From contig CAZLRP010000002.1 of NCBI GenBank assembly GCA_964562105.1, positions 19,222 through 83,221 on the forward strand: 64,000 bases of DNA, given 5' to 3'. The DNA comes from an uncultured Candidatus Saccharibacteria bacterium (GTDB lineage Bacteria > Patescibacteriota > Minisyncoccia > Phycocordibacterales > GWA1-40-21). Positions 15,082 to 52,455 of the stretch are shown here, piece after piece (the stretch's first letter is position 1; each line of letters starts with the position of its first letter). Below the pieces are notes generated by a model. That model was not told the DNA's origin. It saw only the letters and a program-made list of their open reading frames with translations, and searched no databases. The translations under genes and the position numbers were made by a program.

Positions 15082-15516
15082 TTAGATTCTGAATGTTTTA
15101 TCAACCCGTGACATATCGTCAACAGCTTTGATAAATGCTTTCTGGTAGTTCATAAAGAGTTTTGCTAAAAATTCTTTAGGAGCCCATAAACAGATTTTCA
15201 ACGTTTCTTCGTTTGTTCTTTTTACAATTATTTCTTCACCGGGGACTATTTTTCCGGAGATTTCAGTAACCAAAAAAAATACTTTATTATTCTCTCCGTC
15301 TTCCCGATAAACTTCTCGAAATTTTATAGGGGTTAATTTTTTGTTTGTATTTCCCAAAAATTCTCGTACAAGTGTTTGATCAAACCTTTCTGGATATTTT
15401 CCATATCCTCCCAAAGGCTTCACCTTATCGGGGTCTCTAATATCAGTAGCTCCCAGTATATACCATGCGCCTCCTATCCTAATGATACAAAATGCCACAC
15501 AATACCAACTTTTCAT
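15082..15516 (-). CDS. Nudix-fold paralog with a degenerate Nudix box (likely catalytically inactive)
   Basis: WYILGATDIRDPDKVKPLGGYGKY...VREFLGNTN aligns with the neighbour's WKVLGATDSRFPNDAKIPGGTNKD...KREFYEETG, but the REx2EE glutamates are lost. Confidence 0.5.
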   Translation of the reverse strand: MKSWYCVAFCIIRIGGAWYILGATDIRDPDKVKPLGGYGKYPERFDQTLVREFLGNTNKKLTPIKFREVYREDGENNKVFFLVTEISGKIVPGEEIIVKRTNEETLKICLWAPKEFLAKLFMNYQKAFIKAVDDMSRVDKTFRI

Positions 15517-15657
15517 TTTGTCCTCCAGTCATTGATGTTTTACTTCTATTTGTAGTTTTATCATATTGATACAATACGTCAAGCAATTTAAATAATAAGA
15601 AAACCCTAAAAACTCCACTCGCGTAAAATTTTTAGGGTTTTAAAAATAGCTTAAAAA

Positions 15658-16182
15658 CTAGAACTTCATCACGGAAAATCTATCATACATCTCTAGATTA
15701 TCTTGACGAAACTTTTCATCGGAGTTCGCCATCGCAAGAAAAGCTTTAACAAAACCATTTCTGTGATTGATAAGAAGTGCTTTCTCAAAATCCTGAAGAG
15801 TCCACCAACGAACTTTTATCTTGTCTTTATCGTCGGTAAATTCCCTGATGAAATCAAACGGAAAATTTCCTGTAGCATTTTTCACCAAATAAAAATACCT
15901 GGTGTGTATGGTTCCTTTGACTCTACCAGGAATCTTTACGAAATGGGCTTGAAGACATTCACCGTTTGTCCTAAACCCAGTTTCCTCATAAAACTCGCGT
16001 TTTAAGGTATCGCCCGGTGTTTCTTCAATCAATTCCTTCGTCTCATCATCTTTATTCGTACCCCCTGGAATTTTAGCATCGTTTGGGAAACGAGAATCCG
16101 TGGCACCGAGAACTTTCCACCGGTTATCTTTCGTATCAAAACTGAAATAAACTCCTGCCGAAAAATGATCGCTGGTATTCAC
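15658..16182 (-). CDS. Nudix hydrolase
   Basis: Nudix box IPGGTNKDDETKELIEETPGDTLKREFYEETGF. Confidence 0.75.
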   Translation of the reverse strand: MNTSDHFSAGVYFSFDTKDNRWKVLGATDSRFPNDAKIPGGTNKDDETKELIEETPGDTLKREFYEETGFRTNGECLQAHFVKIPGRVKGTIHTRYFYLVKNATGNFPFDFIREFTDDKDKIKVRWWTLQDFEKALLINHRNGFVKAFLAMANSDEKFRQDNLEMYDRFSVMKF

Positions 16183-17570: not shown

Positions 17571-20500
17571 ATGCCTAAATTTATTCATTTACATACGCAC
17601 AGTCACTACAGTTTGCTTAACGCCCTGCCTAAATTAAAAGAGCTTATTCATACAGCAAAAGATTTAGATATGCCGGCTCTTGCTTTGACAGACGCAGGAA
17701 ATATGTACGGAGCAATTGAATTTTATCAGAATTGCAAAAAGAACGGGATTAAACCGATTATCGGAGTAGATTTTTATGTCGCTGCAAGAACTCGCACTGA
17801 CAAACAAGGAGGCGTAGATAATCGCCGAACTCGCCTAGTTCTTTTAGCAAAAAATGAAATCGGCTACAAAAATCTTATAAAACTTGTCACTGATTCTTAT
17901 TTTGAAGGATTTTATTATAAGCCAAGAATAGATCGCGAGCTCATAGAAAAATATTCTGATGATTTGGTCTGCATTATGCCACATTTTTCTGGAGAAACTT
18001 CCCACGCCTTAAAAAATGGAGACATTGAAAAAGCTGAAAATATTATAAATTGGTATAAAAAAGTTTATGGGAAAGAAAATTTTTTCTTGGAAGTAACACA
18101 TCATCCTGAAATAGAAGGACAGATTGAACTCAAAGAAAAAATTATAAAATTAGCAAAAGAAACGAACACTCAGATTGTAGCAGGACACGATGTTTATTAT
18201 CTTAAACCAGAAGATAAAATGGCCCGAGATACACTTGTCCAAGTAAATTCGCATTCGGACTTTTCAGACCGAGAGCAAAAAGAAAGCGCTGATGATTTTT
18301 CTTTTATCTCATCTGAAAAAGCAGAAGAATATTTTAAAGATATTCCGAAAGCTTTGGAAAACACGCTTAAGATTGCGGATATGTGTAATATTGAAATAAA
18401 GCTTGGTAAAGAAGCGTGGGTATTTCCAGACTTTGTAGTAGAAAGTGGCCTTACACACGATGAAGAATTAAAAAGGCTCACATATCTTGGCATAGATAAA
18501 AGAAATCTTTCGCATTCAAAAGAAGTTATAGATAGAGTTGAATACGAACTTAAAATCATCAAAGATAAGGGTTATTCAAAATATTTTCTTGTGGTATCCG
18601 ACTTGTTACGTTTTTCTGCAGAAAATGGAATCTATACGAACATCAGAGGTTCGGTCGCAGGATCAATCGTCACATATCTCACCGGCATTACAAAAGTAAA
18701 TCCGCTTGAATACAAACTTCCCTTCGAAAGATTCCTTAATCCTGAAAGACCTTCGGCACCCGATATTGATATGGACTTCGCCGACAACAGACGAGACGAC
18801 GTCATAAATTATACAAGACAAAAATATGGAAAAGATAATGTCGCACAAATTGGAACTTTCGGTACGATGATGGCTCGAGGTGCCGTCCGAGATGTTGCAA
18901 GAGCAATGGGCTTTCCGCTTCCCCTTGCCGATAAAATTGCCAAACTTGTGCCTTTGGGCGCGCAAGGTTTTCCGATGACCCTCAAAAAAGCACTTAGAGA
19001 TGTTCCGGAACTTAAAGAAATGTATGATAACAATAAAGATACAAAAACTATCATAGATATGGCAGAAAAAATTGAGGGATGTGCACGACATATTTCTGTT
19101 CACGCAGCCGGAGTTGTAATAGCACCAACAGCACTTACAAAGTATGTTCCGCTTCAATATGATCCTAAAGGCGAAGGGAAAATTATCACTCAATATGACA
19201 TGCACACCGTCGGTGAAGACGGCGTTGGACTTTTGAAATTTGATTTTCTTGGAATAAAAAATCTTTCAATACTTGCTGATGCCGTAGACAGAGTTAAAAA
19301 AATTGAAAATATAGATTTGGATATTGAAGCTATCCCACTTGATGATAAATTGACTTTTGAAATGCTTGCCCGTGGAGAAACCACCGGTCTTTTTCAGCTT
19401 AACGGCTCTGGAATGACAAAATATCTGAAAGATTTGAAACCAACAACTATCCATGATATCAACGCTATGGTTGCTCTTTATCGCCCAGGACCTATTGAAA
19501 TGATCCCCGAATATATAGACAGAAAACATCATCCTGAAAAAATAAAATATCTTGATCCGCGACTTAAAGAAATTCTTGATCAATCTTACGGGGTTATTAC
19601 ATATCAGGACGACGTCATGCTTACTGCTATAAAACTCGCGGGATATTCTTGGCTTGAAGCAGACAAACTTAGAAAAGCTATGGGTAAAAAAATCCCCGCA
19701 GAAATGCAAGCTCAGAAAGAAAAACTCTTAAAAGGTTTTGTTGAACACGGACTCACTGAGAAAAAAGCAGACACTCTTTGGAAACTCATTGAACCTTTTG
19801 CCGCTTACGGATTCAACAAAGCTCACGCTGCAAGTTATGGAAGAGTTTCTTATCAAACCGCTTATATGAAAGCAAACTTCCCCGCAATTTACATGTCTTC
19901 CGTGCTTACAGCAGATTCAGGGGATGTAGAAAAAATCGGCGAATTTATAACAGACTGCAAAAAAATGGGGATTCCAGTATTACCTCCATCCGTCAATGAA
20001 AGCTTCAGCGATTTCACTGTTGTAAAAACTCCTAGTGTAAGTCCACACGGAACTGGGCCAGATAGAGATAAAATTCGTTTTGGTCTTACAACAATTAAAA
20101 ATTTCGGTGAAGGAATTTCAAAAACCATTATTCACGAAAGAAAAGCAAAAGGTAAATTTAAATCTCTTTCAGATTTTCTTGAAAGAATTCAGACTAAAGA
20201 TATGAATAAGAGATCTCTTGAAGCTCTTATAAAAACCGGTGCACTTGATGACCTGCCTGCGCAGTCAGGATTTGCAGATAGAGGTGTCATGCTCGCAAAT
20301 ATGGAAAATCTTTTGAGATACAATAAAGAAGTAAGTAAACGAGACCAAAATCAGGATTCCCTTTTTGGAATTTTTGATGGTAATAACACACCAGATGACA
20401 CAAAAAAATATGAGGCCTTTACTCTTGAATCCGCAGAAAAAGCTACAATGAAAGACAAGCTCGCTTGGGAAAAAGACTTGCTCGGACTTTATATTTCTGG

Positions 20501-20843
20501 TCATCCTCTTGATAAATACAGAGCCACTTTGGAAAAACAGCCGATAAACATAAAAAGAATTATAGAAGAAACAGAAACTGTCAAAAAAGAAATTGATGGT
20601 GGCAAACCAATCGGTGGAATCATAGAAGAGGTTCGAGAAATTATGACAAAAAATAATGAGCCCATGGCTTTCATCAAAATTGCTGATTTCACCGGTTCAA
20701 TTGACGCTGTGGTCTTCCCAAGAACTTATTCACAATTTAAATCCGCCATCGCTCCCGATAAATGTATCGCAGCAATATGCAAAGTTTCAGAAAGAAATGG
20801 AGAAATAAGTTTGATTATTGAGAGGTTAAAGGTTTTGGAATAG
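17571..20843 (+). CDS. dnaE: DNA polymerase III alpha subunit
   Basis: PHP domain FIHLHTHSHYSLLNALPK, polymerase core, OB-fold C-terminus. 1090 aa. Confidence 0.9.
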   Translation: MPKFIHLHTHSHYSLLNALPKLKELIHTAKDLDMPALALTDAGNMYGAIEFYQNCKKNGIKPIIGVDFYVAARTRTDKQGGVDNRRTRLVLLAKNEIGYKNLIKLVTDSYFEGFYYKPRIDRELIEKYSDDLVCIMPHFSGETSHALKNGDIEKAENIINWYKKVYGKENFFLEVTHHPEIEGQIELKEKIIKLAKETNTQIVAGHDVYYLKPEDKMARDTLVQVNSHSDFSDREQKESADDFSFISSEKAEEYFKDIPKALENTLKIADMCNIEIKLGKEAWVFPDFVVESGLTHDEELKRLTYLGIDKRNLSHSKEVIDRVEYELKIIKDKGYSKYFLVVSDLLRFSAENGIYTNIRGSVAGSIVTYLTGITKVNPLEYKLPFERFLNPERPSAPDIDMDFADNRRDDVINYTRQKYGKDNVAQIGTFGTMMARGAVRDVARAMGFPLPLADKIAKLVPLGAQGFPMTLKKALRDVPELKEMYDNNKDTKTIIDMAEKIEGCARHISVHAAGVVIAPTALTKYVPLQYDPKGEGKIITQYDMHTVGEDGVGLLKFDFLGIKNLSILADAVDRVKKIENIDLDIEAIPLDDKLTFEMLARGETTGLFQLNGSGMTKYLKDLKPTTIHDINAMVALYRPGPIEMIPEYIDRKHHPEKIKYLDPRLKEILDQSYGVITYQDDVMLTAIKLAGYSWLEADKLRKAMGKKIPAEMQAQKEKLLKGFVEHGLTEKKADTLWKLIEPFAAYGFNKAHAASYGRVSYQTAYMKANFPAIYMSSVLTADSGDVEKIGEFITDCKKMGIPVLPPSVNESFSDFTVVKTPSVSPHGTGPDRDKIRFGLTTIKNFGEGISKTIIHERKAKGKFKSLSDFLERIQTKDMNKRSLEALIKTGALDDLPAQSGFADRGVMLANMENLLRYNKEVSKRDQNQDSLFGIFDGNNTPDDTKKYEAFTLESAEKATMKDKLAWEKDLLGLYISGHPLDKYRATLEKQPINIKRIIEETETVKKEIDGGKPIGGIIEEVREIMTKNNEPMAFIKIADFTGSIDAVVFPRTYSQFKSAIAPDKCIAAICKVSERNGEISLIIERLKVLE

Positions 20844-21042: not shown

Positions 21043-21079
21043 AAACATACGAATATACAAATATTACTAATGGTACAAA

Positions 21080-21158
21080 TGGCTACAAATAATTAATTCG
21101 TTTCGAATTTATTCGTAGCCATTCGTATCATTCGCATAATTCGTTAATTCGTAATAAC
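21080..21158 (+). promoter_or_regulatory. ATTCGTA heptamer direct-repeat array (motif copy A) in the thrS 5' region
   Basis: attcgtt..attcgtagcc attcgtatc attcgcata attcgtta attcgtaa with about 9-10 bp spacing, plus a flanking near-IR ATGGCTACAAATAA / TTATTCGTAGCCAT. Homologous to 29404-29449 and 36193-36250. Confidence 0.55.
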
Positions 21159-27184: not shown

Positions 27185-27361
27185 ATGACAAAATCAGAGG
27201 AACTTTCCAAAATTCTTGATGAGATTGTCACAAAAGCAAAAAAACAAGGAGTGGAGAGAGACGATATCGCGCAAGAAACAATCGAACTGATTGCCAAAGG
27301 ATGTCAGATTCCTGTGGAAGAAGTTCATACGCACCTCGATCAAAAGTGGAATTTAAAATAA
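27185..27361 (+). CDS. Small hypothetical protein (58 aa)
   Basis: SD GGAGGTG 6 nt upstream of the ATG at 27185. Downstream hairpin with T-run at 27366-27400. Confidence 0.4.
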   Translation: MTKSEELSKILDEIVTKAKKQGVERDDIAQETIELIAKGCQIPVEEVHTHLDQKWNLK

Positions 27362-27410
27362 TGATAAAAAAGCACCAATTTTTATTCTTGGTGCTTTTTA
27401 TTTTTATTTA

Positions 27411-29378: not shown

Positions 29379-29403
29379 GATTGATCTGGTATTTAAATTT
29401 AAT

Positions 29404-29449
29404 TATTTGTAGCCATTTGTATCATTCGAATAATTTGTATATTCGTATG
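29404..29449 (+). promoter_or_regulatory. ATTCGTA/ATTTGTA heptamer array (motif copy B) between pheS and pheT
   Basis: ttatttgtagccatttgtatcattcgaataatttgtatattcgtatg. Same order and orientation on the + strand as copy A. Confidence 0.5.
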
Positions 29450-29456
29450 TTCATCT

Positions 29457-30221: not shown

Positions 30222-30268
30222 AACCCCAATTATACAGAATTTTTACCTTTTTGCATCATATATGTTGT

Positions 30269-30339
30269 GCCATTCCCGTGAAAACGGAAATCTAGATTGA
30301 ATTAAATTAATTTTGGATTCCCGTTTTCACGGGAATGGC
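30269..30339. repeat. Family-B REP-like palindromic element copy 1 (GCCATTCCCG...CGGGAATGGC)
   Basis: Outer IR plus two internal ATTCCCG-loop-CGGGAAT hairpins and the shared core AATCTAGATTGAATTAAATTAATTTTGGATTCCC. Confidence 0.7.
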
Positions 30340-30345
30340 AGATGT

Positions 30346-30375
30346 GAAGAGCGGCGCCGAAGGCGCCGCTCTTTT
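30346..30375. terminator. GC-rich hairpin agagcggcgcc-gaa-ggcgccgctct + T-run
   Basis: 11-bp stem. Intergenic between pheS and the GT2 gene. Confidence 0.5.
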
Positions 30376-30472
30376 AAATTCTTAAATTAACTATTTTTAT
30401 ACCACATTTTCACTTTTTTCTTCGTACAAAATCCATATTTAAAGCTTTTTTTATATAATAAAAAGTGCTATA

Positions 30473-36192: not shown

Positions 36193-36250
36193 TTACGAAT
36201 TATTATACTAATATACGAATTTATGCGAATGATACGAATGGCTACAAATA
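36193..36250 (-). promoter_or_regulatory. ATTCGTA heptamer array (motif copy C) abutting the rpmE start codon
   Basis: Reverse complement reads tttgtagccattcgtatcattcgcataaattcgtatattagtataataattcgtaac-ATG, nearly identical to copy A upstream of thrS. Confidence 0.55.
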
Positions 36251-39447: not shown

Positions 39448-40443
39448 TTAATATTTACCAATACGTGCCAAACTGTTTGACTTTGCAGCAGATAGAAGTA
39501 ATTCTTGTGCAGTTGTAATATCAGATGAATTTTTTGCCCAACTCATAAGGGCTTTGTTTTGTATTGCTCTTCCGTAAGAAAATGTAAGTGGCCATGGCAG
39601 TGGTGCATATTTATACATGGCATTTAAATTGAGAGACGCTTGTTCATCATCTTGTCCCCCTGACAGAAAAACGATACCACCAATCTCTTTTGGTACGTGT
39701 TCAATAAGACATTTTATTGTCATACCTGCAACATCTTGAGCTAGTGATTGAACAGTCGAATCCTTTCCAGAAATAACCATACTTGTTTTTAAAATCATAC
39801 CAGGGATAAAAATATTTTTTTCTTTAAGAGTTTTAAATATAATATCAAGATTTCGCGCAGTAACCTCAAGACATTTATTTATTGTATGATCACCATCCAT
39901 CAATATTTCTGGCTCAACAATAGGCACAATTCCTACACTCTGACAAAAATGTGCGTACTCGGCAAAAATGCGAGCATTTTCTTGCATGCATTCTTCACTA
40001 GGTGTTTCTGTACTTATATTATATATTGCACGCCACTTAGCGAATGTAGCACCCATCTTCTTATATTCATCTAAACGATCGGGAAGACCAATGAGTCCTT
40101 CAGTAATTTTATCTCCATCATGAGGTGGAAAATCTTTTGTACCCATATCTACTTTTATACCTATATCTATACCCTTTTCTTGTAAGACTGATGTAAAATT
40201 TTTTCCATCAATAGTTTTTTGACGTATTGTTTCGTCAAAAAAAATATAACCGGAAATATAATTTTCAATATCTGGTGCAGTTACAAGTAATTCGCGATAT
40301 TTCCTACGATTTTCCTCTGAGGGAATAATGCCAAGTTTTAGAAAACGTTTATTACATGTCGGTATACTTTCATCTATAGCAAGAATACCTTTAGGTGAAA
40401 GCATTAGGCGTGATATTGTTTCCGTTAAGTTTTTTGTATCCAT
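39448..40443 (-). CDS. fba: Class I fructose-bisphosphate aldolase
   Basis: KGILAIDES...; class-I FBA Schiff-base family architecture. Confidence 0.75.
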   Translation of the reverse strand: MDTKNLTETISRLMLSPKGILAIDESIPTCNKRFLKLGIIPSEENRRKYRELLVTAPDIENYISGYIFFDETIRQKTIDGKNFTSVLQEKGIDIGIKVDMGTKDFPPHDGDKITEGLIGLPDRLDEYKKMGATFAKWRAIYNISTETPSEECMQENARIFAEYAHFCQSVGIVPIVEPEILMDGDHTINKCLEVTARNLDIIFKTLKEKNIFIPGMILKTSMVISGKDSTVQSLAQDVAGMTIKCLIEHVPKEIGGIVFLSGGQDDEQASLNLNAMYKYAPLPWPLTFSYGRAIQNKALMSWAKNSSDITTAQELLLSAAKSNSLARIGKY

Positions 40444-40445
40444 AT

Positions 40446-40591
40446 TATTTACCCGAGAAAATTTTTGCCAATAAAAATTGTTTGTTTGACTTAATAACTT
40501 ACATCTATTATATCACATGACATAACAAAATTTGTACGTAGTAGAAACAACTAATTTTTAACAAACATTGGCAAAAACTTTAACGGGTGAA
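40446..40591 (-). repeat. Family-C TIR cassette copy (reverse orientation) abutting the fba start codon
   Basis: Ends atttacccgagaaaatttttgccaa (40446-) and ttggcaaaaactttaacgggtgaac (-40591). In gene sense the proximal end reads ...gcaaaaattttctcgggtaaataat-ATG. Confidence 0.65.
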
Positions 40592-40609
40592 CAAGTTTTA
40601 GAAATTTAA

Positions 40610-40642
40610 AAAAGCGGGTTTTGGGCAAAGCCCAAAACCCGC
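40610..40642 (-). terminator. Terminator agcgggttttgggc-aaa-gcccaaaacccgct
   Basis: 14-bp stem 3' of the DUF1653 gene. Confidence 0.55.
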
Positions 40643-41293: not shown

Positions 41294-41305
41294 AATTTTT
41301 TAATT

Positions 41306-41376
41306 GTCATTCCCGTGCAGACGGGAATCCAGAATTAGTTTAATACAACCTAGATTCCCGCATCCGCGGGAATGAC
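41306..41376. repeat. Family-B REP-like element copy 2 (inverted core orientation), 12 bp upstream of the SET-gene start
   Basis: gtcattcccgtgcagacgggaatccagaattagtttaatacaacctagattcccgcatccgcgggaatgac. Confidence 0.7.
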
Positions 41377-41381
41377 ACACA

Positions 41382-42854: not shown

Positions 42855-42967
42855 AATTAAAATAAAATTATTAATTTATACAGTTAATTATATCTTTTCT
42901 ATTTATGTATGGCAATGTTTTACAAGACAGAGTAAAAATTCACACGGAACAGGTATTCTGCTATACT

Positions 42968-43107
42968 TGACCCGTTAAAGTTTTTGCTGATGTGTTGAAA
43001 ATGAGAAGAAAAATAATTATCTTTTTTAAAGATAGTTTCTAGTAAAAATTTTATTTAATCGTTTAACATCAACACATTTTTGTCAGCAAAAATTTTCTCG
43101 GGTAAAT
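42968..43107 (+). repeat. Family-C TIR cassette copy abutting the asnB start codon
   Basis: Left end tgacccgttaaagtttttgctga and right end tcagcaaaaattttctcgggtaaat are mutual inverted repeats. Contains an internal palindrome atcttttttaaagat and a TTGTCA-17-TAAATT promoter-like pair at the proximal end. Confidence 0.65.
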
Positions 43108-43110
43108 TTT

Positions 43111-44970
43111 ATGTGTGGAATTGCCGGGACTGTGAGTCCCGAAATAAAAGAAAAAGATAGTGTTATACGAGAAATGATTTCTCGCATTTTTCATCGTGGA
43201 CCAGATGATGACGGTTTTTTTGTGGACGAGAATATTGCTTTGGGTATGCGCAGATTGTCTATAATAGATATTTCTACCGGTAAACAACCTATATGGTCGC
43301 AAGATAAAAAGAAAGTTATATTTTTTAATGGTGAAATTTATAATTATCTCGAACTCCGTAAAGAATTGATTTCAAAAGGCCATATTTTTGATACACATGG
43401 CGACACAGAAGTTATCTTGCACATGTATGAAGAATATGGAGAAAAAATGCTTACCCAGCTACGAGGTATGTTTGCATTTTGCATATATGACAAAGAAAGC
43501 AAAGCTGTTTTTCTGGCACGAGATTTTTTCGGAATAAAACCGCTTTATTATCTTAAAGATGCCGAAAAAATAGTTGCGTTCTCGTCTGAAATAAAAAGTT
43601 TTTTGTCTTACCCAGGATTCAAAACCGTGGTCAATGATTCAGCTGTCTACAATTATTTATCATTCCAATACAATCCACTTCCCGAAACTTTTTTCAAATC
43701 CGTTTATAAGCTTCCTCCTGCCCACTGCATGAAAATTGACTTAAAAAATGGAAGCGTGGAAATTAAAAAATATTGGTCATACGAAATTAAGCCAGATGAA
43801 AATTTGGAAGAGATTGAGACCACAAAAAAAATCCACGAAACTATACGAGATTCAGTAGAACATCACATGATTGCAGATGTTCCCGTCGGCTCTTTTCTTT
43901 CTGGCGGAATTGACAGTAGTATTATTGCCACGATGATGCAGGAAATCCGTGGAGGCAACCCCAGTCAAATAAAAAGCCAATTTGACGGGGCAAGAAAAAT
44001 TAAAACTTTTACAGTTGGTTTTGATACACTAACAGAAGGCGTAGAATCAAAAGAAACATCAGATTTTCTTGGCACAGATCATACAGAAATAAAAATCGGG
44101 CCTGAAGAATATTTTAATATTCTTCCAAAAGCCGTATATCACTTTGATGAGCCCGTCGCCGATCCTTCCGCTATTGGGCTTTATTTTGTAGCCCGTGAAG
44201 CAAAAAAACATGTCAAAGTTGTACTTTCTGGTGAGGGGGCTGATGAACTTTTCGGCGGATATAATATATATCTTGCACCTTTTGCTTACAAAAAAATATC
44301 TTGGATTCCTAAAAGCTTTTTGAAAATAATTTTAAAAATACCATTTGAATTTTTTGGAAAAAACTATATTCGCCGCGCGAGCGACTTGCTTTCAAACTGG
44401 TATGTAGGCAACGCTTCAATATTTAAAGATTTTGAGCGAGATTTGTTGTGGAAAAAACAAGTTGAACAAAAATATTCCCTTTCGCCATTTTATGAACATG
44501 TAAAAAATTTGAGTGATTCTACGCAAATGCAATATATTGATGTTTCTACTTGGCTCATTGGAGACATCCTGGCAAAAGCTGATAAAATGACAATGGCAAA
44601 TTCATTGGAGCTTCGCGTGCCTTTTTTGGATAAGAAAGTTTCAGATTTGGCCTCCACTTTGCCAGATAAATTTAAATGGCGTAAAGGCGTGACTAAATAC
44701 CTTTTGCGAGAGGCATTTAAGAATGTAATCCCCGAGAGCACCCGCAATAGAAAAAAGCTTGGTTTTCCAACACCAATTCGCGATTGGTTCACCGAAGACA
44801 GACAAGATTTATACCAGAAAATATACGACTGTAAATACATAAGAGAGCATATGAATGTTGAATATATTAAAAAAATTGTGGAAGATCATATAAATAAAAA
44901 AATCGATAACTCCAGAAAAATATATTTACTTTTAATGCTCGCTTTGTGGTTTGAGGTATTTGTTAAATAA
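43111..44970 (+). CDS. asnB: Asparagine synthase (glutamine-hydrolysing)
   Basis: MCGIAG N-terminal nucleophile, SGGIDSS PP-loop. Confidence 0.9.
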   Translation: MCGIAGTVSPEIKEKDSVIREMISRIFHRGPDDDGFFVDENIALGMRRLSIIDISTGKQPIWSQDKKKVIFFNGEIYNYLELRKELISKGHIFDTHGDTEVILHMYEEYGEKMLTQLRGMFAFCIYDKESKAVFLARDFFGIKPLYYLKDAEKIVAFSSEIKSFLSYPGFKTVVNDSAVYNYLSFQYNPLPETFFKSVYKLPPAHCMKIDLKNGSVEIKKYWSYEIKPDENLEEIETTKKIHETIRDSVEHHMIADVPVGSFLSGGIDSSIIATMMQEIRGGNPSQIKSQFDGARKIKTFTVGFDTLTEGVESKETSDFLGTDHTEIKIGPEEYFNILPKAVYHFDEPVADPSAIGLYFVAREAKKHVKVVLSGEGADELFGGYNIYLAPFAYKKISWIPKSFLKIILKIPFEFFGKNYIRRASDLLSNWYVGNASIFKDFERDLLWKKQVEQKYSLSPFYEHVKNLSDSTQMQYIDVSTWLIGDILAKADKMTMANSLELRVPFLDKKVSDLASTLPDKFKWRKGVTKYLLREAFKNVIPESTRNRKKLGFPTPIRDWFTEDRQDLYQKIYDCKYIREHMNVEYIKKIVEDHINKKIDNSRKIYLLLMLALWFEVFVK

Positions 44971-45617: not shown

Positions 45618-45849
45618 TTTACCCGTTAAAGTTTTTACTAACGCATTTTTGTCTTTACAAATAAAGTTAAGTAGACTAGATTAAATAAAACATAATTATC
45701 TGAATAGTCTTGCTGTGTTTAAAATGACAAAAATGCAAAAAAGTTAGTTTTGAGTTAAGATATTACTTGTAATATAAATGTTTGATAAATTAAGTAAGTT
45801 AGATATAGTCACTACTAACTTTTTTATTAGTAAAAATTTTTTCGGGTAA
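45618..45849 (+). repeat. Family-C TIR cassette copy (about 232 bp) abutting and overlapping the mraY start codon
   Basis: Left end tttacccgttaaagtttttactaa and right end ttagtaaaaattttttcgggtaaat(g)ATG. Confidence 0.65.
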
Positions 45850-47664: not shown

Positions 47665-49083
47665 CTATTTCGTTGACAATATTTCCACTAAAACTTTTTT
47701 AATTACTTGGGGATTTGCAGAACCTTTCGTTTCTTTCATTATTTGTCCGACAAAAAACATCAGCGCCGCTTCTTTTCCTGCCTTATAATCAGCCACAACT
47801 TTCGGATTTTCTTTTATCAATTTTTCTGCAATTTCTTTTATTGCGCCTTCATCAGATTTTTGTATCAATCCTTCTTTATTGGCTATTTCTTCTGGATCAC
47901 CTCCCTTTTCATACATAATTTTTAAAATATCTTTTGCACCACGAGAAGATAAAACATTCTTTGCAATCATGCTAATAAGCGTTGAGAAATTACTTGGAGT
48001 TAGTTTACCAAATGTAAATTCGCTTCCAGAGGCTTTTGAAAGTCCTACCAAATCAGACGTAATATAATTTGATACAGTTTTTGCACCCAACGATCCAAAA
48101 TTTTTAATTACTGATTCAAAAAATTCAGATACTTTTATATTATTCGCGTAAAATTCAATGTCTGCATTTGAAAGTCCGAAGTCTTTTTCATACCTTGTTC
48201 TTTTATCCCAAGGCAATTCCGGAAGTTCTTCCTTAAGCTTTTTCAAGTCAAAAACTTCGGAAATCATCATTTTTGGCAAATCCGGGTCTGGAAAATATCT
48301 ATAATCGTGAGAATCTTCTTTTATTCTTTGCGAATATGTTTTTTGTTTGCTTTCGTCCCAACCACGAGTTTCCTGAACAACTTTTTCTCCTTTTTCCAAG
48401 GCATCAATCTGCCTTTGAATTTCATAAGCCAATGCCCTTTCCAGAGTTCTAAAAGAATTCAAATTTTTAATCTCAACTTTTGTTCCAAGCTTGTCGGTAT
48501 CGGAAACGGAAATGTTCGCCTCAACCCTCATTTCCCCTTTTTCCATATTTGCATCTCCTGCTCCCAAGTATTGCAAAAGTAACTGGAGTTCTTTTGCAAA
48601 ATCAGCGGCTTGTTTGCCAGAATGAATTACAGGTTCCGTAACAAGTTCCATAAGCGGAACTCCCGAACGGTTAAAATCTACAAGCGAAAAATCTCCTGCG
48701 TCGTGAGTGGATGAACCTGTATCCTCTTCAAGATGAATTCTTGTTAGCTTTACTCCATTTATGGAACCGCCTAAAACTAAAGGATATTTGTATTGAGAAA
48801 TTTGATAACCTTTTGGAATATCGGGATAAAAATAATTTTTTCTGTCCCATTCCGTAAAATCTGCAATTTTTGAGCCACAAGCCAAACCAACTTTCAAAAC
48901 ATGCTTGATGGCTTCTTTATTTAAAACGGGCAAAGTTCCCGGCTGTGCAGTACAAATGGAACAAATATTTGAATTCGGTTTTTCTTCATCTGGATCATTC
49001 TTGCAAGAACAAAACATCTTTGTTTTTGTTTTGAGTTCCGCGTGGATTTCAAGTCCGATTGTAGCCTTATATTTTTCGTTCAT
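47665..49083 (-). CDS. gatB: Asp-tRNA(Asn)/Glu-tRNA(Gln) amidotransferase subunit B
   Basis: ATIGLEIHAEL...FCSC. Confidence 0.9.
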   Translation of the reverse strand: MNEKYKATIGLEIHAELKTKTKMFCSCKNDPDEEKPNSNICSICTAQPGTLPVLNKEAIKHVLKVGLACGSKIADFTEWDRKNYFYPDIPKGYQISQYKYPLVLGGSINGVKLTRIHLEEDTGSSTHDAGDFSLVDFNRSGVPLMELVTEPVIHSGKQAADFAKELQLLLQYLGAGDANMEKGEMRVEANISVSDTDKLGTKVEIKNLNSFRTLERALAYEIQRQIDALEKGEKVVQETRGWDESKQKTYSQRIKEDSHDYRYFPDPDLPKMMISEVFDLKKLKEELPELPWDKRTRYEKDFGLSNADIEFYANNIKVSEFFESVIKNFGSLGAKTVSNYITSDLVGLSKASGSEFTFGKLTPSNFSTLISMIAKNVLSSRGAKDILKIMYEKGGDPEEIANKEGLIQKSDEGAIKEIAEKLIKENPKVVADYKAGKEAALMFFVGQIMKETKGSANPQVIKKVLVEILSTK

Positions 49084-49094
49084 ATTTGTTTTGT

Positions 49095-49162
49095 GTCATT
49101 CCCGTGTAAACGGGAATCTAGGTTGAATTTTAATAATGGATTCCCGCATTCGCGGGAATGAC
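49095..49162. repeat. Family-B REP-like element copy 4, 11 bp upstream of the gatB start codon
   Basis: gtcattcccgtgtaaacgggaatctaggttgaattttaataatggattcccgcattcgcgggaatgac. Confidence 0.7.
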
Positions 49163-49290
49163 AATACAAAAATACAAATAAATAATAGCATAAAAATTAT
49201 AAAATGAGCTTCATTTTTATCCTTGACAAAAGATTTATAATGAGGTACAATTCACAAGTAGCTAAATTTGTTCTTCAAAAGGAGAAAAAC

Positions 49291-49470
49291 ATGACAGATC
49301 AAATTTTTATAGCAATTTTTGTTCTTGTGAGTGCTTTTTCAGCTGGCAAATTTGTAGAAACACATTCGTCCTTTTGGCTTAGTGTATCAGTGGCTTGGGG
49401 ACTTTGGGTAATTTGTAACAGTATTTTAATAACAGGAAAAAACATTATCAAAGAAATTAAAGAAAAATAA
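49291..49470 (+). CDS. Small two-TM membrane peptide (59 aa)
   Basis: SD AAGGAG 8 nt upstream. Sequence MTDQIFIAIFVLVSAFSAGKF...WLSVSVAWGLWVICNSILITG. Followed by a terminator identical to the one after the next ORF. The ORF track gives a longer 88-aa form. Confidence 0.5.
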   Translation: MTDQIFIAIFVLVSAFSAGKFVETHSSFWLSVSVAWGLWVICNSILITGKNIIKEIKEK

Positions 49471-49488
49471 GTGAAAGAGGATGTAACG

Positions 49489-49522
49489 AGCGGTATCTTT
49501 TATGAGGAGATGCCGCTTTTTT
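49489..49522 (+). terminator. Intrinsic terminator agcggtatc-ttttatgaggag-atgccgct + T6 (identical copy at 50011-50046)
   Basis: 9-bp stem including one G-T pair, followed by a T-run. Confidence 0.65.
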
Positions 49523-49616
49523 AATTACATTTTTATCCATTTTTACAACTTGATAATACAATTATAATAATGTAGAGTTTTGCTAGATAGTTATATTTTA
49601 ACAAAGGAGGTATTTT

Positions 49617-49994
49617 ATGCCTATGATGTATTGTCCAATTTGTGGATATTTTTCATTTAATCCCAAGAAACAGAATCATCCCTTGCTAGGTGAACAACCT
49701 AACGACTGTCATGATCCTTGGAACCATTACACAGAAGAGCAAAGAAAAGAAATTAAAATGTTACCCGTAACTACAGAAAATTTATTTTGTGGTAAGTGCG
49801 ACAAGATATTTTCTGTCGGTTATGTGGAAAAGGTATTTTGTTCATCCGTCGCAGGAATTAAAGAGATAACTTGTCCACATTGTTTCGGGTATCCGCTTGC
49901 GCCAATAACAGAGTCTCATCTAAAAGCTGGTGAAAATGGTGGAGTAGTATTTCTTTCCGGCCTCGCACAAGAAACATTTGGAATTTCTCATTAA
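49617..49994 (+). CDS. Cys-rich zinc-ribbon protein (125 aa)
   Basis: SD AAGGAGG 6 nt upstream. CPICG...CGKCD...CPHC. Confidence 0.5.
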   Translation: MPMMYCPICGYFSFNPKKQNHPLLGEQPNDCHDPWNHYTEEQRKEIKMLPVTTENLFCGKCDKIFSVGYVEKVFCSSVAGIKEITCPHCFGYPLAPITESHLKAGENGGVVFLSGLAQETFGISH

Positions 49995-50010
49995 AAAGCA
50001 CGGGGAGATA

Positions 50011-50046
50011 AGCGGTATCTTTTATGAGGAGATGCCGCTTTTTTTA
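50011..50046 (+). terminator. Intrinsic terminator, exact duplicate of 49489-49522
   Basis: aagcggtatcttttatgaggagatgccgctttttttatt. Confidence 0.65.
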
Positions 50047-50055
50047 TTGTACACT

Positions 50056-50126
50056 GTCATTCCCGCGGAGGCGGGAATCTAGGTTGAATTAAATTAATTC
50101 TGGATTCCCGCCTGCACGGGAATGAC
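50056..50126. repeat. Family-B REP-like element copy 5 (most complete)
   Basis: gtcattcccgcggaggcgggaatctaggttgaattaaattaattctggattcccgcctgcacgggaatgac. Just 3' of the obg stop. Confidence 0.7.
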
Positions 50127-50133
50127 ACACGAT

Positions 50134-51147
50134 TTATTTTATAGCTCTTAGTATTTTAATCAGATTATCTTTCAGCCCTTTTATAGATTGGTCATCCAAA
50201 ACCGTCACAGTCAAAATGTTAGGATTTAACTTTGACATTTTTTTTATCGCTTGAGCTATTTTCTTATCTGCGTAAAGTCCGCGTGAAGTCCGCGTTTTTT
50301 CCGCGTCTTCCAGCAAATCTTTCTTTGTAAGGATTAGAACTTCTTTTTTTTCTGCGAGTTCTTCGCTGTAAACTTTGAGCTCATTTCTGATGACTTTGTA
50401 ATCTTTTACCAAATCTTCGCTATCAAGAGAAAGACAATGAAGCAAAGTTTTTGTCCTTTTTATATGTCTCAGAAATTTATGTCCAAGTCCCTTTCCTTCT
50501 GAAGCGCCTTCTATGAGTCCAGGAATGTCAGCCAAAATATAGCCATGCATATCTCCAAGCGAAGGTTCAAGCGTTGTAAATTGGTAAGCTCCGATTTTTG
50601 ATTTTGAATTGGTAAGGACATTTATCAAACTGGATTTTCCTGCATTTGGAAGCCCGATAAGCCCCGCATCAGCTACAAGTTCAACTTCAATGGAAAAATC
50701 CGCTTCTTCCGCAGATTTTCCGTCAGTTTGGTTTTCCGGAGATCTATTTACGGCATTTTTAAAATATTCGTTTCCAAGACCTCCCTTTCCGCCATTTAGT
50801 ATTTTTATTTTCTCGTCATCAGTAACCAGATTGAATTTTTCTCTTGTTTCAAGATTGGTAACGACAGAACCGATAGGTACATCTATTATCAAATCCGCGC
50901 CATTTTTTCCATGCATGCTTTTTTTCATTCCGTCTTCTCCTTTTTCTGCAATAAATTCTTTTGTATTTTTATATCTTGCAAGCACAGCAATATCGCGAAT
51001 GGCGCGTAAATATACATCGCCACCTTTTCCTCCATTTCCACCTGCAGGACCTGCTCTATCAATTCCCTTCTCGTGCCTCCAACGCACAACTCCGTTTCCT
51101 CCGTACCCGGCAGATATATGTATTTTTAATTCATCTATAAAAGCCAT
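50134..51147 (-). CDS. obg: GTPase Obg
   Basis: Obg fold FIDELKIHISAGYGGNG..., G-domain GLPNAGKSSL. Confidence 0.9.
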   Translation of the reverse strand: MAFIDELKIHISAGYGGNGVVRWRHEKGIDRAGPAGGNGGKGGDVYLRAIRDIAVLARYKNTKEFIAEKGEDGMKKSMHGKNGADLIIDVPIGSVVTNLETREKFNLVTDDEKIKILNGGKGGLGNEYFKNAVNRSPENQTDGKSAEEADFSIEVELVADAGLIGLPNAGKSSLINVLTNSKSKIGAYQFTTLEPSLGDMHGYILADIPGLIEGASEGKGLGHKFLRHIKRTKTLLHCLSLDSEDLVKDYKVIRNELKVYSEELAEKKEVLILTKKDLLEDAEKTRTSRGLYADKKIAQAIKKMSKLNPNILTVTVLDDQSIKGLKDNLIKILRAIK

Positions 51148-51176
51148 AATTAGTTATAAAGTTAAAAGTTATAATG

Positions 51177-51521
51177 TTATAAAGTTTTAATAAAACCAGA
51201 TAATAATCTTGAGATATCCAAGGATAGATCGTTCAATCCTGTATATTCTTTATTATCTATATATTTCAAATCTTTAGCTAATGAAAGCATGGATCTTACT
51301 TCCGCACAAGAACCTTTCGCTATATAAAAAAACTGAATAATTTCTTTATTACTTTTTCTCTCAAATCCTTCGGCGATATTATTCATAATTGAAACCCCAG
51401 CTCTTTGTATTTGATCTTTAAATGAGTAATCTTTAGAAAACTTAAAAATACAATGGACTTGCAAAGTCAAAACTTTCGCTTTTTGCCAAGCTATAATATC
51501 TTCAAATTTCTCTATCTTCAT
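51177..51521 (-). CDS. Four-helix-bundle protein (23S rRNA IVS-protein family)
   Basis: FEDIIAWQKA...QIQRAGVSIMNNIAEGFERKSNKE...IAKGSCAEV. Confidence 0.65.
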   Translation of the reverse strand: MKIEKFEDIIAWQKAKVLTLQVHCIFKFSKDYSFKDQIQRAGVSIMNNIAEGFERKSNKEIIQFFYIAKGSCAEVRSMLSLAKDLKYIDNKEYTGLNDLSLDISRLLSGFIKTL

Positions 51522-51543
51522 TTGTATTTAAACTTTATAACTT

Positions 51544-52455
51544 TCAACTTTGTACTTTATAACTTGCAAGCGCGAGCTTCGCGAGCGCGATTGCTCCCTC
51601 TTTTGACTTTGCCACGGCGACGAATCTGTCATTATGACAAAAAATTGCGCCTGAAACTCCTGTTATTTTTTCCAAATCTCCGTCTCTTTTTCCAGACCAA
51701 CTTTCTGGAAAATATATTCTTCTTTCAAATTTTGCATCAATTTTTACAACAGCTTCAACGCTCCAAGTCTTATTTGGTTTTGGAGATATTACAAAAAGCG
51801 GCTCAGAATAACTAACAACAGTTTTTTTCCATGAATAATTGTCATCTAAAATAATAATTCGCTTATCTTCAGTTTTTTTATATATGTCCCGAACAATTTC
51901 AATAGCAATATAATTATCTTTTGCACGTTTTATTTCTCTTAAAAGCATTTTTTTAACTTCTTTCACAGCAAATAAGAATGATTTTAAATGATCTCCCTTT
52001 TCTCTCCATGTAGGGTTAAGTGCATGCACATAATCAAAAAAAGAATATGGCGATATTTTTTCGAAAATATTTTTATATATTTCTACACCACTATCTTCAG
52101 CATCTACTGGTTGAATTATTTTTTCATCAATTTTATCTGCTATTTCTTGAGAGTCAGCTATTTTTTCTCCATACTCTTTCCATACTAGACCGCTAGTGGC
52201 ATAAGGAATGCCATTTCCCCTTTTTTTATTCCAACCTTCCTCATGATGATCAAACTTATTTGTTTTTGGATTATATTCTCCTCCGACATCCAGAACGAAA
52301 TCCATATCTGATAAAATTTTCTTATTTCTTGTCCTAAAAATTTTTAATGGTTTTTTTAAATATAAAGATAAAATCGCTACAGAAAATACATCGTCCGGGT
52401 GAAACCTTCCGTCATGAACCGCGACTTTTATTTTTTTACTTTTTCGTAATGTCAT
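51544..52455 (-). CDS. MYG1/UPF0160-family metal-dependent hydrolase
   Basis: VAVHDGRFHPDDVFSVAIL resembles the MYG1 GTHxGxFHxDE motif. Confidence 0.6.
   Translation of the reverse strand: MTLRKSKKIKVAVHDGRFHPDDVFSVAILSLYLKKPLKIFRTRNKKILSDMDFVLDVGGEYNPKTNKFDHHEEGWNKKRGNGIPYATSGLVWKEYGEKIADSQEIADKIDEKIIQPVDAEDSGVEIYKNIFEKISPYSFFDYVHALNPTWREKGDHLKSFLFAVKEVKKMLLREIKRAKDNYIAIEIVRDIYKKTEDKRIIILDDNYSWKKTVVSYSEPLFVISPKPNKTWSVEAVVKIDAKFERRIYFPESWSGKRDGDLEKITGVSGAIFCHNDRFVAVAKSKEGAIALAKLALASYKVQS

Follow-up and report, generated by a model that had tools for sequence, protein, structure and literature searches.

An accessory islet of two small-gene cassettes in the obg-gatB junction of a Candidatus Saccharibacteria genome

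In the genome of an uncultured Candidatus Saccharibacteria bacterium, the housekeeping genes obg and gatB are separated by a spacer of 1,050 bp that contains two open reading frames (ORFs) on the plus strand, opposite to that of obg and gatB. One encodes a hydrophobic peptide of 59 aa and the other a cysteine-rich protein of 125 aa. An earlier note on this DNA had described the interval as an accessory islet, in which both genes have a strong Shine-Dalgarno (SD) sequence and the same terminator, and which is bracketed by elements resembling repetitive extragenic palindromes (REPs). The two genes, the strong SDs, the identical terminators and the flanking repeats were all found, at or near the positions assigned to them there. 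What kind of locus is this: a unit that is exchanged between genomes, a toxin or holin-like module, or a variable spacer in which independent genes have gathered? We analysed the islet within a stretch of 64,000 nt, termed the window, whose positions serve as coordinates throughout. Our answer, which we consider reasonably probable, is that the spacer is a lineage-specific filling of the obg-gatB junction by two independent monocistronic cassettes, with one REP dimer at each edge.

The junction and its two cassettes

The junction was compared with 80 related Paceibacteria loci retrieved by GatB (best GatB identity 71%), which total 1.27 Mb of sequence; this retrieval assigns the genome itself to the Paceibacteria (Patescibacteria/CPR); loci with L numbers are such relatives or metagenome contigs compared with the window. 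In 52 of the 80, obg is followed by gatB on the same strand, often within the longer order dhh-obg-gatB(-rpiB). The gap between the two genes is 60 nt or less in 24 of these 52 (5-20 nt in many), and the ancestral junction was probably very short. The other 28 have gaps of 75-4,011 nt filled with unrelated genes, including those for peroxiredoxin, PadR-like and toxin-antitoxin proteins, a 23S-rRNA-intervening-sequence protein (IVP), ABC transporters, reverse transcriptase and small membrane proteins. obg and gatB are the conserved left-hand and right-hand anchors of this junction (Table 1). Neither islet ORF is present at the site in any of the relatives. Across all 80 relatives sampled, then, the interval is either missing or differs, and it is not universally conserved, which bears out the description of it as accessory. 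The comparison of GC and codon usage that the earlier note had proposed was also carried out: in GC content, GC content at third codon positions (GC3) and synonymous codon usage, both ORFs fall inside the distribution of the host genome. With all three measures native, a recent foreign origin was rejected. The interval is an accessory, real but fairly ordinary variable spot.

Cassette 1 carries the 59-aa ORF behind a predicted promoter of near-consensus sigma-70 type. The earlier note had pointed to a TATAAT -10 box at 49236-49241. This sequence is present but lies only 7 nt past the TTGACA box (49223-49228), too close to pair with it; the -10 partner of TTGACA is TACAAT at 49246-49251, at a spacing of 17 nt. 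We place the ORF at 49291-49470, while a GenBank-type annotation instead gives an 88-aa ORF from 49204. The two transmembrane segments proposed earlier are seen in the hydropathy profile as two hydrophobic segments (approximately residues 4-18 and 27-47), followed by a Lys/Glu-rich tail, suggesting that the product is probably a membrane hairpin peptide. It is an ORFan: its only match among 5.8e9 proteins is its own 88-aa record, and it has no family match in Pfam, PHROG, PADLOC or NCBIfam, the libraries searched with both islet proteins. The closest relatives, L003 and L005 (GatB 71% and 69% identical), have a 53-aa hydrophobic peptide with two segments in the same place and on the same strand, equipped with a TTGACA promoter, an AGGAGG-type SD and a different terminator of its own. 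These two cassettes are accompanied by neither REPs nor a zinc gene. When scored against shuffled sequences, the 59-aa peptide shows no significant similarity to its positional analogues in L003, L005 and L038 (p = 0.05 to 0.9), and tblastn of the peptide on the relatives gives nothing below E = 0.4. Position and architecture suggest that the peptides of the window and of L003/L005 are orthologous; homology is not demonstrable.

The product of cassette 2 belongs to a very rare, unannotated family. It has three matches, itself included, among the 5.8e9 proteins, and nine in a separate search of 1.84e9 representatives, all in singleton clusters. The ratio of nonsynonymous to synonymous substitution rates (dN/dS) is 0.06-0.21, and the ORF is therefore a real gene under purifying selection. 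Residues C6, C9, C31, N55, F57, C58, C61, C86, C89, E99, H101, L102, L113, S114 and G115 are invariant in an alignment of eight sequences. The protein also contains a conserved C-terminal ITESHL...LLSG motif and a lineage-specific insertion at approximately residues 67-84. The earlier note had read this gene as a Cys4 zinc ribbon. A cysteine-rich ORF of 125 aa is indeed present, but not a single Cys4 ribbon: the seven conserved cysteine positions imply two metal sites, predicted to be formed by C6/C9 with C31 and perhaps H21 (site 1) and by C58/C61 with C86/C89 (site 2).

The cysteine pattern and an AlphaFold2 model of moderate confidence (predicted local distance difference test score of 65 with three sequences and 71 with eight) are consistent with ribbon-like beta hairpins. 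Foldseek against the PDB returned only generic zinc modules (Sir2, RING), with a best E of 0.27. A sequence-profile search of the PDB gave RPA12 as the best match at E = 0.003, which we judged to be driven by the cysteine pattern and not significant. Pfam Zn_ribbon_3/DZR was matched at E of about 1e-3, with a best score of 17 bits against a cut-off of 27, and nothing rose above threshold in any of the four family libraries. The protein is likely a cytoplasmic zinc-dependent factor that binds nucleic acids or proteins.

Homologues of the zinc gene occur in other contexts: after htpX (L001), before a tRNA gene and infB-rbfA (L002, 129-458), between PBP2 and ileS and preceded by an unrelated hydrophilic ORF of 85 aa (L094-96), and in a row of small ORFs before rpmE-rpsB-tsf (L098, 5001-5276). 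Among those examined, none lies beside a similar peptide and none is associated with REPs. Since the zinc gene occurs elsewhere without such a peptide, the two islet genes are not a co-inherited pair. They are not an operon either, because each has its own promoter and terminator; for cassette 2 an alternative promoter to the one in Table 1 is TTTACA-18-AATAAT at 49542-49571.

A separate observation is that the zinc family repeatedly adjoins translation genes, namely ileS (L094, 4926-5258), infB-rbfA, rpmE-rpsB-tsf and gatB/obg. This adjacency could be chance in gene-poor genomes of the candidate phyla radiation (CPR) or a hint of a translation-associated role.

The two cassettes share regulatory parts. 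The 34-nt terminator AGCGGTATCTTTTATGAGGAGATGCCGCTTTTTT occurs exactly twice in the 64 kb, both times in the islet, and no shuffled sequence gave a match; a search for it, suggested in the earlier note, thus shows that it is not a common genome-wide terminator. Its copies start 522 bp apart as direct repeats, and the identity reaches 38 nt with one mismatch. On the plus strand the RNA folds at -19 to -20 kcal/mol (z of about -5), followed by a T6-7 tract, whereas on the minus strand it folds at only -11 kcal/mol and has no U tract. With a GC-containing stem-loop and a U tract on the transcribed strand, these are Rho-independent and therefore unidirectional terminators, serving the plus-strand genes. 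The 11-mer CATTTTTATCC directly 5' of the -35 box of cassette 1 recurs at 49528-49538 before the second promoter (two copies in the window against 0.2 expected).

The zinc gene and its homologues differ in their terminators. Its leader, TAGATAG..TTTAACAAAGGAGG, is conserved in the homologous loci L001 and L002, and the homologues retain a similar leader and SD (TAAATAGAACTTTAAYAAAGGAGG) but have other terminators. In the window, the zinc gene lacks the terminator type of its homologues and has an exact copy of that of the peptide gene instead. The earlier note had argued that identical terminators imply modular duplication, and the sharing of both the terminator and the 11-mer 5' of the two promoters speaks for it. 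The identical terminators probably mark a duplication or recombination step of 522 bp. A second example of cassette duplication in the host genome is provided by a tandem pair of NUDIX-like cassettes, of 174 aa and 144 aa, at 15082-16182 on the minus strand, each with promoter, SD and terminator; L092 (1270-1838) has a single NUDIX-like cassette where the window has two.

SD sequences are rare in this lineage. Only five of the 55 genes in the window have one at the start: 2370-2966, 15082-15516 and 15658-16182, all on the minus strand, and the islet genes 49291-49470 and 49617-49994. The small ORF 27185-27361 (+) is a sixth SD-led gene in the window. The four that lie outside the islet all combine the SD with a private terminator, and three of the four have a TTGAC-type promoter. 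In the 80 relatives a strong SD precedes only 12 of 1,024 ORFs (>=120 aa), and an SD is present in the L003/L005 peptide cassettes and in all zinc-gene homologues examined. Given its rarity in core genes, the SD therefore marks a distinct class of self-contained, lineage-specific cassettes that consist of stand-alone orphan or accessory genes and are built to be translated from a leader by way of the SD. A literature search on SD usage in Patescibacteria returned nothing relevant.

Two further observations concern terminators and cargo genes. A terminator type with the stem AGCACCAA...TTGGTGCT and a T run is found repeatedly after small SD-led genes that are unrelated and belong to different genomes, among them the 58-aa ORF of the window (terminator at 27368-27400) and two zinc-gene homologues (at approximately 485-520 in L002 and 5275-5312 in L094). 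Next to the islet, an IVP gene (51177-51521, minus strand) separates the DHH-family gene from obg; in most relatives this junction is tight. The flanks of the IVP gene (51148-51176 and 51522-51570) carry repeats of the TTATAAC/AAGTTATAAAG type. Because an IVP homologue also occupies the obg-gatB gap itself in L017 (8503-8847), small IVP genes seem to be a further type of cargo in these hotspots.

REP dimers at the edges of the islet

The "REP-like" label of the earlier note proved apt: the repeats are true REP-type elements of a known, published class (CGTC-1/dRS3/NTS; NTS, Neisseria Transformation Sequence), whose members also go by the name of Ssn-related motifs (SRMs). That note had placed copies 4 and 5 around the islet, and dimers do lie at both of its edges, but the window contains four dimers, not five (Table 1). 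All four are intergenic, measure 70-73 nt and align with a mean column identity of 84%. Each half-site has the form TGTC-ATTCCCGY-N4-RCGGGAAT-CYRG, a conserved AT-rich spacer separates the halves, and the eighth stem pair covaries (T-A / C-G). The two dimers that flank the islet are in direct orientation and 84-85% identical. The dimer on the gatB side begins 11 nt upstream of the ATG of gatB, which itself lacks an SD, and can alternatively fold as one long hairpin at -40 kcal/mol; the dimer on the obg side folds at -46 to -51 kcal/mol.

To assign the repeats to a class, we compared them with published families. In Neisseria, dRS3 is defined as ATTCCC-N8-GGGAAT and the longer NTS as CGTCATTCCCGCGMAVGCGGGAATCYRG (PMC11893778). 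The window has seven exact sites of ATTCCCG-N6-CGGGAAT against none expected, and the eighth half-site has one mismatch, so that the dRS3 palindrome is present. Against the 28-nt NTS consensus the eight half-sites agree at 23-26 positions (2-5 mismatches): 24-25 in the halves of the gatB-side dimer and 26 in the obg-side dimer. None of the eight lies within the published limit of one mismatch (PMC11893778), and they are NTS-like rather than canonical. The degenerate SRM pattern, HGTCWYN(0-2)YYVSBRHN(0-5)WNVSBRGN(0-2)RNCYNB, is matched by four of the eight half-sites against 0.02 in shuffles. The matching half-sites include one or both halves of each islet-flanking dimer, and in the gatB-side dimer both. 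The features of the CGTC-1 family are all found: a CGTC or TGTC tag, an 8-bp stem starting with AT, a 4-nt loop, a short tail, a predominance of dimers and an extragenic location. Descriptions of CGTC REPs come mainly from alpha-proteobacteria and Neisseria (Di Nocera et al. 2013, PMC3733652), Wolbachia repeats (Rfam WsnRNA46) belong to the CGTC-1 family as well, and the main text of PMC11893778 contains no Patescibacteria terms. The Rfam model WsnRNA46, a repeat-derived small RNA of Wolbachia, aligns to the whole obg-side dimer at E 8e-6, with a sub-threshold score of 34 bits against 65 bits, and is the only Rfam match on the islet. The REP pattern is absent from IMG/VR, and a viral origin is not supported.

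Do these dimers delimit a mobile unit? A metagenome scan found the dimer in 11 contigs. In L085, nrdG lies between nrdD and uvrA with a dimer on each side, and in L090 dimers are located between a ruvX-like gene, a hypothetical gene and a large surface-protein gene. L092, a close relative, is approximately 79% identical in nucleotide sequence to the window over nusB-rpmF and rpoB (window 17571-20843), and its nusB/rpmF spacer contains a dimer that is missing from the window. Similarly, L083, also a close relative, has a dimer upstream of the large gene at window 17571-20843, and none is present there in the window. Because they border housekeeping genes in other contigs, and because orthologous spacers of close relatives may or may not contain one, the dimers behave like ordinary spacer colonists of the REP/BIME type (BIME, bacterial interspersed mosaic element), expanded in this lineage and polymorphic between relatives.

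An alternative is that REP, cargo and REP form a mobile or exchangeable unit, like the NTS-gene-NTS loci or minimal mobile elements of Neisseria, in which the repeats and an Ssn-type nuclease for single-stranded DNA (ssDNA), or repeat-mediated recombination, would govern cargo exchange during natural transformation. The direct orientation and 84-85% identity of the flanking dimers fit such a unit, as does the cargo-variable hotspot at which they lie. In Neisseria, members of the NTS/SRM class to which the repeats belong lie on either side of variable genes and are cleaved by SsnA, a GIY-YIG ssDNA nuclease that modulates transformation (PMC11893778). The dimers are also expanded here, with four dimers in the 64-kb window compared with a REP core in only two loci across the sequence of the 80 relatives. 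However, the closest relatives L003/L005 have a REP-free cargo cassette at this site, homologues of the zinc gene occur elsewhere without REPs, and the same dimers border housekeeping genes (nrdG, the ruvX-like gene) in other contigs. No target-site duplication is visible, and a motif regex found no GIY-YIG ORF in the window or in the REP-bearing contigs. We therefore regard the mobile unit as unlikely, and the bracketing by REPs, which the earlier note had described, does not mark the boundary of one. Transposon ends were considered as well; the dimers are probably not such ends, since housekeeping genes elsewhere have them at their borders and related cargo cassettes lack them.

Table 1. Coordinates of the islet features, the genes that anchor the junction and the REP dimers of the window
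Feature	Position	Strand	Description or basis
gatB (Asp/Glu-tRNA amidotransferase subunit B)	47665-49083	-	Pfam GatB_N 1.5e-106, GatB_Yqey 1.7e-41
REP dimer	49094-49163		hairpins 49094-49121 and 49136-49163, tail to tail, TGTC tags outward
11-mer CATTTTTATCC	49212-49222	+	directly 5' of the cassette 1 -35 box
Predicted promoter, cassette 1	49223-49251	+	TTGACA-17 nt-TACAAT, 11/12 consensus matches
SD AAGGAG	49279-49284	+	6 nt before ATG
59-aa ORF	49291-49470	+	hydropathy profile; codon usage typical of the genome
Intrinsic terminator, copy 1	49489-49522	+	14-bp stem with 3 G-U pairs, 3-nt loop, U tract
Candidate promoter, cassette 2	49550-49578	+	TTGATA-17 nt-TAGAGT; 9-10/12 consensus matches; weak
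SD AAGGAGG	49604-49610	+	6 nt before first ATG
125-aa protein, two predicted zinc sites	49617-49994	+	rare family, invariant columns, dN/dS
Intrinsic terminator, copy 2	50011-50044	+	identical to copy 1
REP dimer	50055-50127		same orientation as 49094-49163; ends 6 nt from obg stop codon
obg (GTPase)	50134-51147	-	Pfam GTP1_OBG 1.3e-45, MMR_HSR1 1.6e-23
REP dimer, more degenerate	30268-30340		between pheS and a glycosyltransferase gene
REP dimer, reverse orientation	41305-41377		takes up the spacer of 88 nt that separates rpe from a SET-domain gene

Several other elements were seen in the window. Right after the more degenerate dimer at 30268-30340 lies an orphan GC-rich, terminator-like hairpin, AGAGCGGCGCCGAAGGCGCCGCTCTTTT (30347-30376, plus strand), with no plus-strand gene upstream, which may be the remnant of a lost cassette. 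A second family of intergenic repeats, approximately 45 nt long, has the sequence ATTATTTGTAGCCATTCGTATCATTCGCATAATTCGTATATTCGTAT with internal ATTCGTAT sub-repeats and occurs at 29401-29451, 21105-21153, 21044-21094 and 36210-36250 (the last two as reverse complements). It is also found at 384-434 in L084 and is 80-92% conserved in a metagenome relative. A conserved leader stands directly before the start codons of 39448-40443 and 43111-44970 and, in part, of mraY, at 40444-40620 (-), 42959-43110 (+) and 45800-45849 (+). It consists of ACCCGTTAAAGTTTTTGC and, approximately 120 nt further on, GCAAAAATTTTCTCGGGTAAAT, and the two ends are complementary. Metagenome contig L086 has three more copies, and the leader may be a structured 5' untranslated region common to cell-envelope genes.

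Proposed history and the alternatives to it

Starting from the anatomy and distribution of the islet, the purifying selection on the zinc gene, the class of the repeats and the independence of the two genes, we propose the following order of events, expression and functions. A small-peptide cassette would have been present at the site before the zinc gene, as the closest relatives have one without repeats or zinc gene. The zinc cassette would then have been placed behind it by recombination or duplication at the terminator, leaving the 38-nt direct repeats 522 bp apart. The REP dimers would have colonised the two remaining spacers independently, as they have elsewhere. Both products would be small accessory proteins that are expressed separately and probably strongly. 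Since the dimers immediately adjoin the stop codon of obg and the start codon of gatB, their hairpins would form part of the obg mRNA at its 3' end and of the gatB leader, probably serving as RNA stabilising or processing structures on these messages. In their ssDNA form, the hairpins (TGTCATTCCCGCGGAGGCGGGAATCTAG) are possibly targets of an Ssn-type single-strand nuclease.

Several points weigh against this account. The promoters are predicted from consensus matches, and the region is AT-rich, with such sites barely enriched (8 versus 5.3 expected). The coding status of the 59-aa ORF and its orthology with the analogues in the relatives are argued from architecture alone. Neither structures nor families gave an informative match for the zinc protein, and the function given for it is therefore generic. 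Gene conversion is one of several other events that fit the identical terminators, and whole-cassette duplication followed by ORF replacement would yield them as well. A motif regex on six-frame translations, the only search made for it, found no credible GIY-YIG (Ssn-type) ORF in the 64-kb window or the loci compared with it. Finally, gatB is now separated from obg, and read-through from obg would be antisense to both small genes.

A broader and quite doubtful interpretation takes the islet as one sample of a general pattern in Paceibacteria. Translation would be mostly SD-less, with a separate pool of SD-led small-gene cassettes in hotspots, each built of a consensus promoter, a leader, a strong SD, an orphan ORF and a strong terminator, and subject to a distinct translation regime such as conditional use of the anti-SD. 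In the lineage of the window, NTS-like dimers and an Ssn-type nuclease would control exchange of the cassettes by transformation, and the zinc family would act as a ribosome- or translation-associated factor.

Could cassette 1 be non-coding, that is, a small RNA of approximately 265 nt or a regulatory divergent transcription unit that interferes with or insulates obg and gatB, the ORF being incidental? The 59-aa ORF has no homologue anywhere, and its positional analogues show no significant sequence similarity to it. On the other hand, AAGGAG lies exactly 6 nt before the ATG of a 59-codon ORF, in a lineage with an SD in approximately 1% of genes. The L003/L005 analogues retain an SD and, although their sequence has turned over, a hydrophobic ORF of equal length, codon usage is native and no Rfam family matches. 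We consider a non-coding cassette very unlikely.

The least probable alternative is the toxin or holin-like module with a partner envisaged in the earlier note, in which the peptide would be a membrane-damaging toxin of the type I toxin-antitoxin kind or a class II holin or pinholin, with the zinc protein or an antisense RNA as partner. Its size, two hydrophobic segments and charged C-terminal tail do resemble those of small membrane toxins and holins, and any read-through from obg to gatB would be fully antisense to the peptide gene, with terminators that are weak on that strand; yet the peptide and the zinc protein do not occur together in other genomes, their genes have separate promoters and terminators and form no operon, none of the four libraries holds a matching family, and a near-consensus promoter and strong SD with no visible repressor are unlikely for a toxin. 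Of what defines type I toxin-antitoxin loci, the hydrophobic peptide is present, with no Rfam antitoxin RNA or convincing antisense promoter. There is no endolysin or spanin gene beside the peptide, and no phage, lysis or endolysin genes were found near the islet, where the neighbours are gatB, obg, the IVP gene, the DHH-family gene and rpiB, with no PHROG matches. Overall, no positive evidence speaks for a toxin or holin.

Relation to known systems

We return to the lineage-specific filling of the junction by two independent cassettes. In sum, this is a true accessory islet of an ordinary kind, whose repeats represent a known class in a new host lineage; it leaves current concepts unchanged. 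CPR genomes carry few classical mobile elements, and the locus shows how such ultra-small genomes vary, as short, self-contained cassettes gather at certain housekeeping-gene junctions. It extends to a Patescibacterium a hairpin class, NTS/CGTC, that is tied to a site-specific ssDNA nuclease. The contrast between an SD-less core and SD-led cassettes offers a sequence handle for picking out accessory, probably highly expressed small proteins, and opens the question of how Patescibacteria ribosomes use the anti-SD.

Individual parts of the islet resemble known systems to different degrees. The zinc protein is like double zinc-ribbon proteins (DZR/Zn_ribbon; RPA12/TFIIS-type) in having two sites of the CxxC...CxxC type within approximately 100-125 aa; unlike them, it reaches no curated threshold, and its ITESHL...LLSG motif has no counterpart. 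The peptide shares with small membrane proteins, type I toxins and class II holins a length below 60 aa, two hydrophobic segments, a charged C-terminus and a stand-alone gene. It differs from the toxins and holins in lacking a family match, antitoxin RNA and lysis genes, and in its constitutive-looking expression signals.

The repeats are closer to their relatives. With CGTC-1 REPs they share the 8-bp stem starting with AT, the 4-nt loop, a tag that is a CGTC-to-TGTC variant, the short tail and the dimeric arrangement, whereas their copy density in the window is modest (four per 64 kb). With dRS3/NTS/SRM they share the ATTCCC-N8-GGGAAT palindrome, an xGTC tag on one side and a C-Y-R-G tail on the other, and an intergenic, multi-copy distribution, often on both sides of a gene. 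Unlike dRS3/NTS, they have a TGTC rather than a CGTC tag and occur only as fixed tail-to-tail dimers with an AT-rich spacer of approximately 17 nt. Their host is a Patescibacterium, and no ssnA was seen within the 64 kb.

The closest parallel for the junction as a whole is the minimal mobile element of Neisseria, in which the same two conserved genes enclose different whole-gene cassettes. This is the arrangement found across the 52 syntenic relatives, at inter-species distances only. Unlike in Neisseria, the variation here lies between genera and species (GatB 54-71% identical), not between strains; as in Neisseria, the conserved pair, obg and gatB, encloses self-contained cassettes that differ between genomes, with repeats at the borders.

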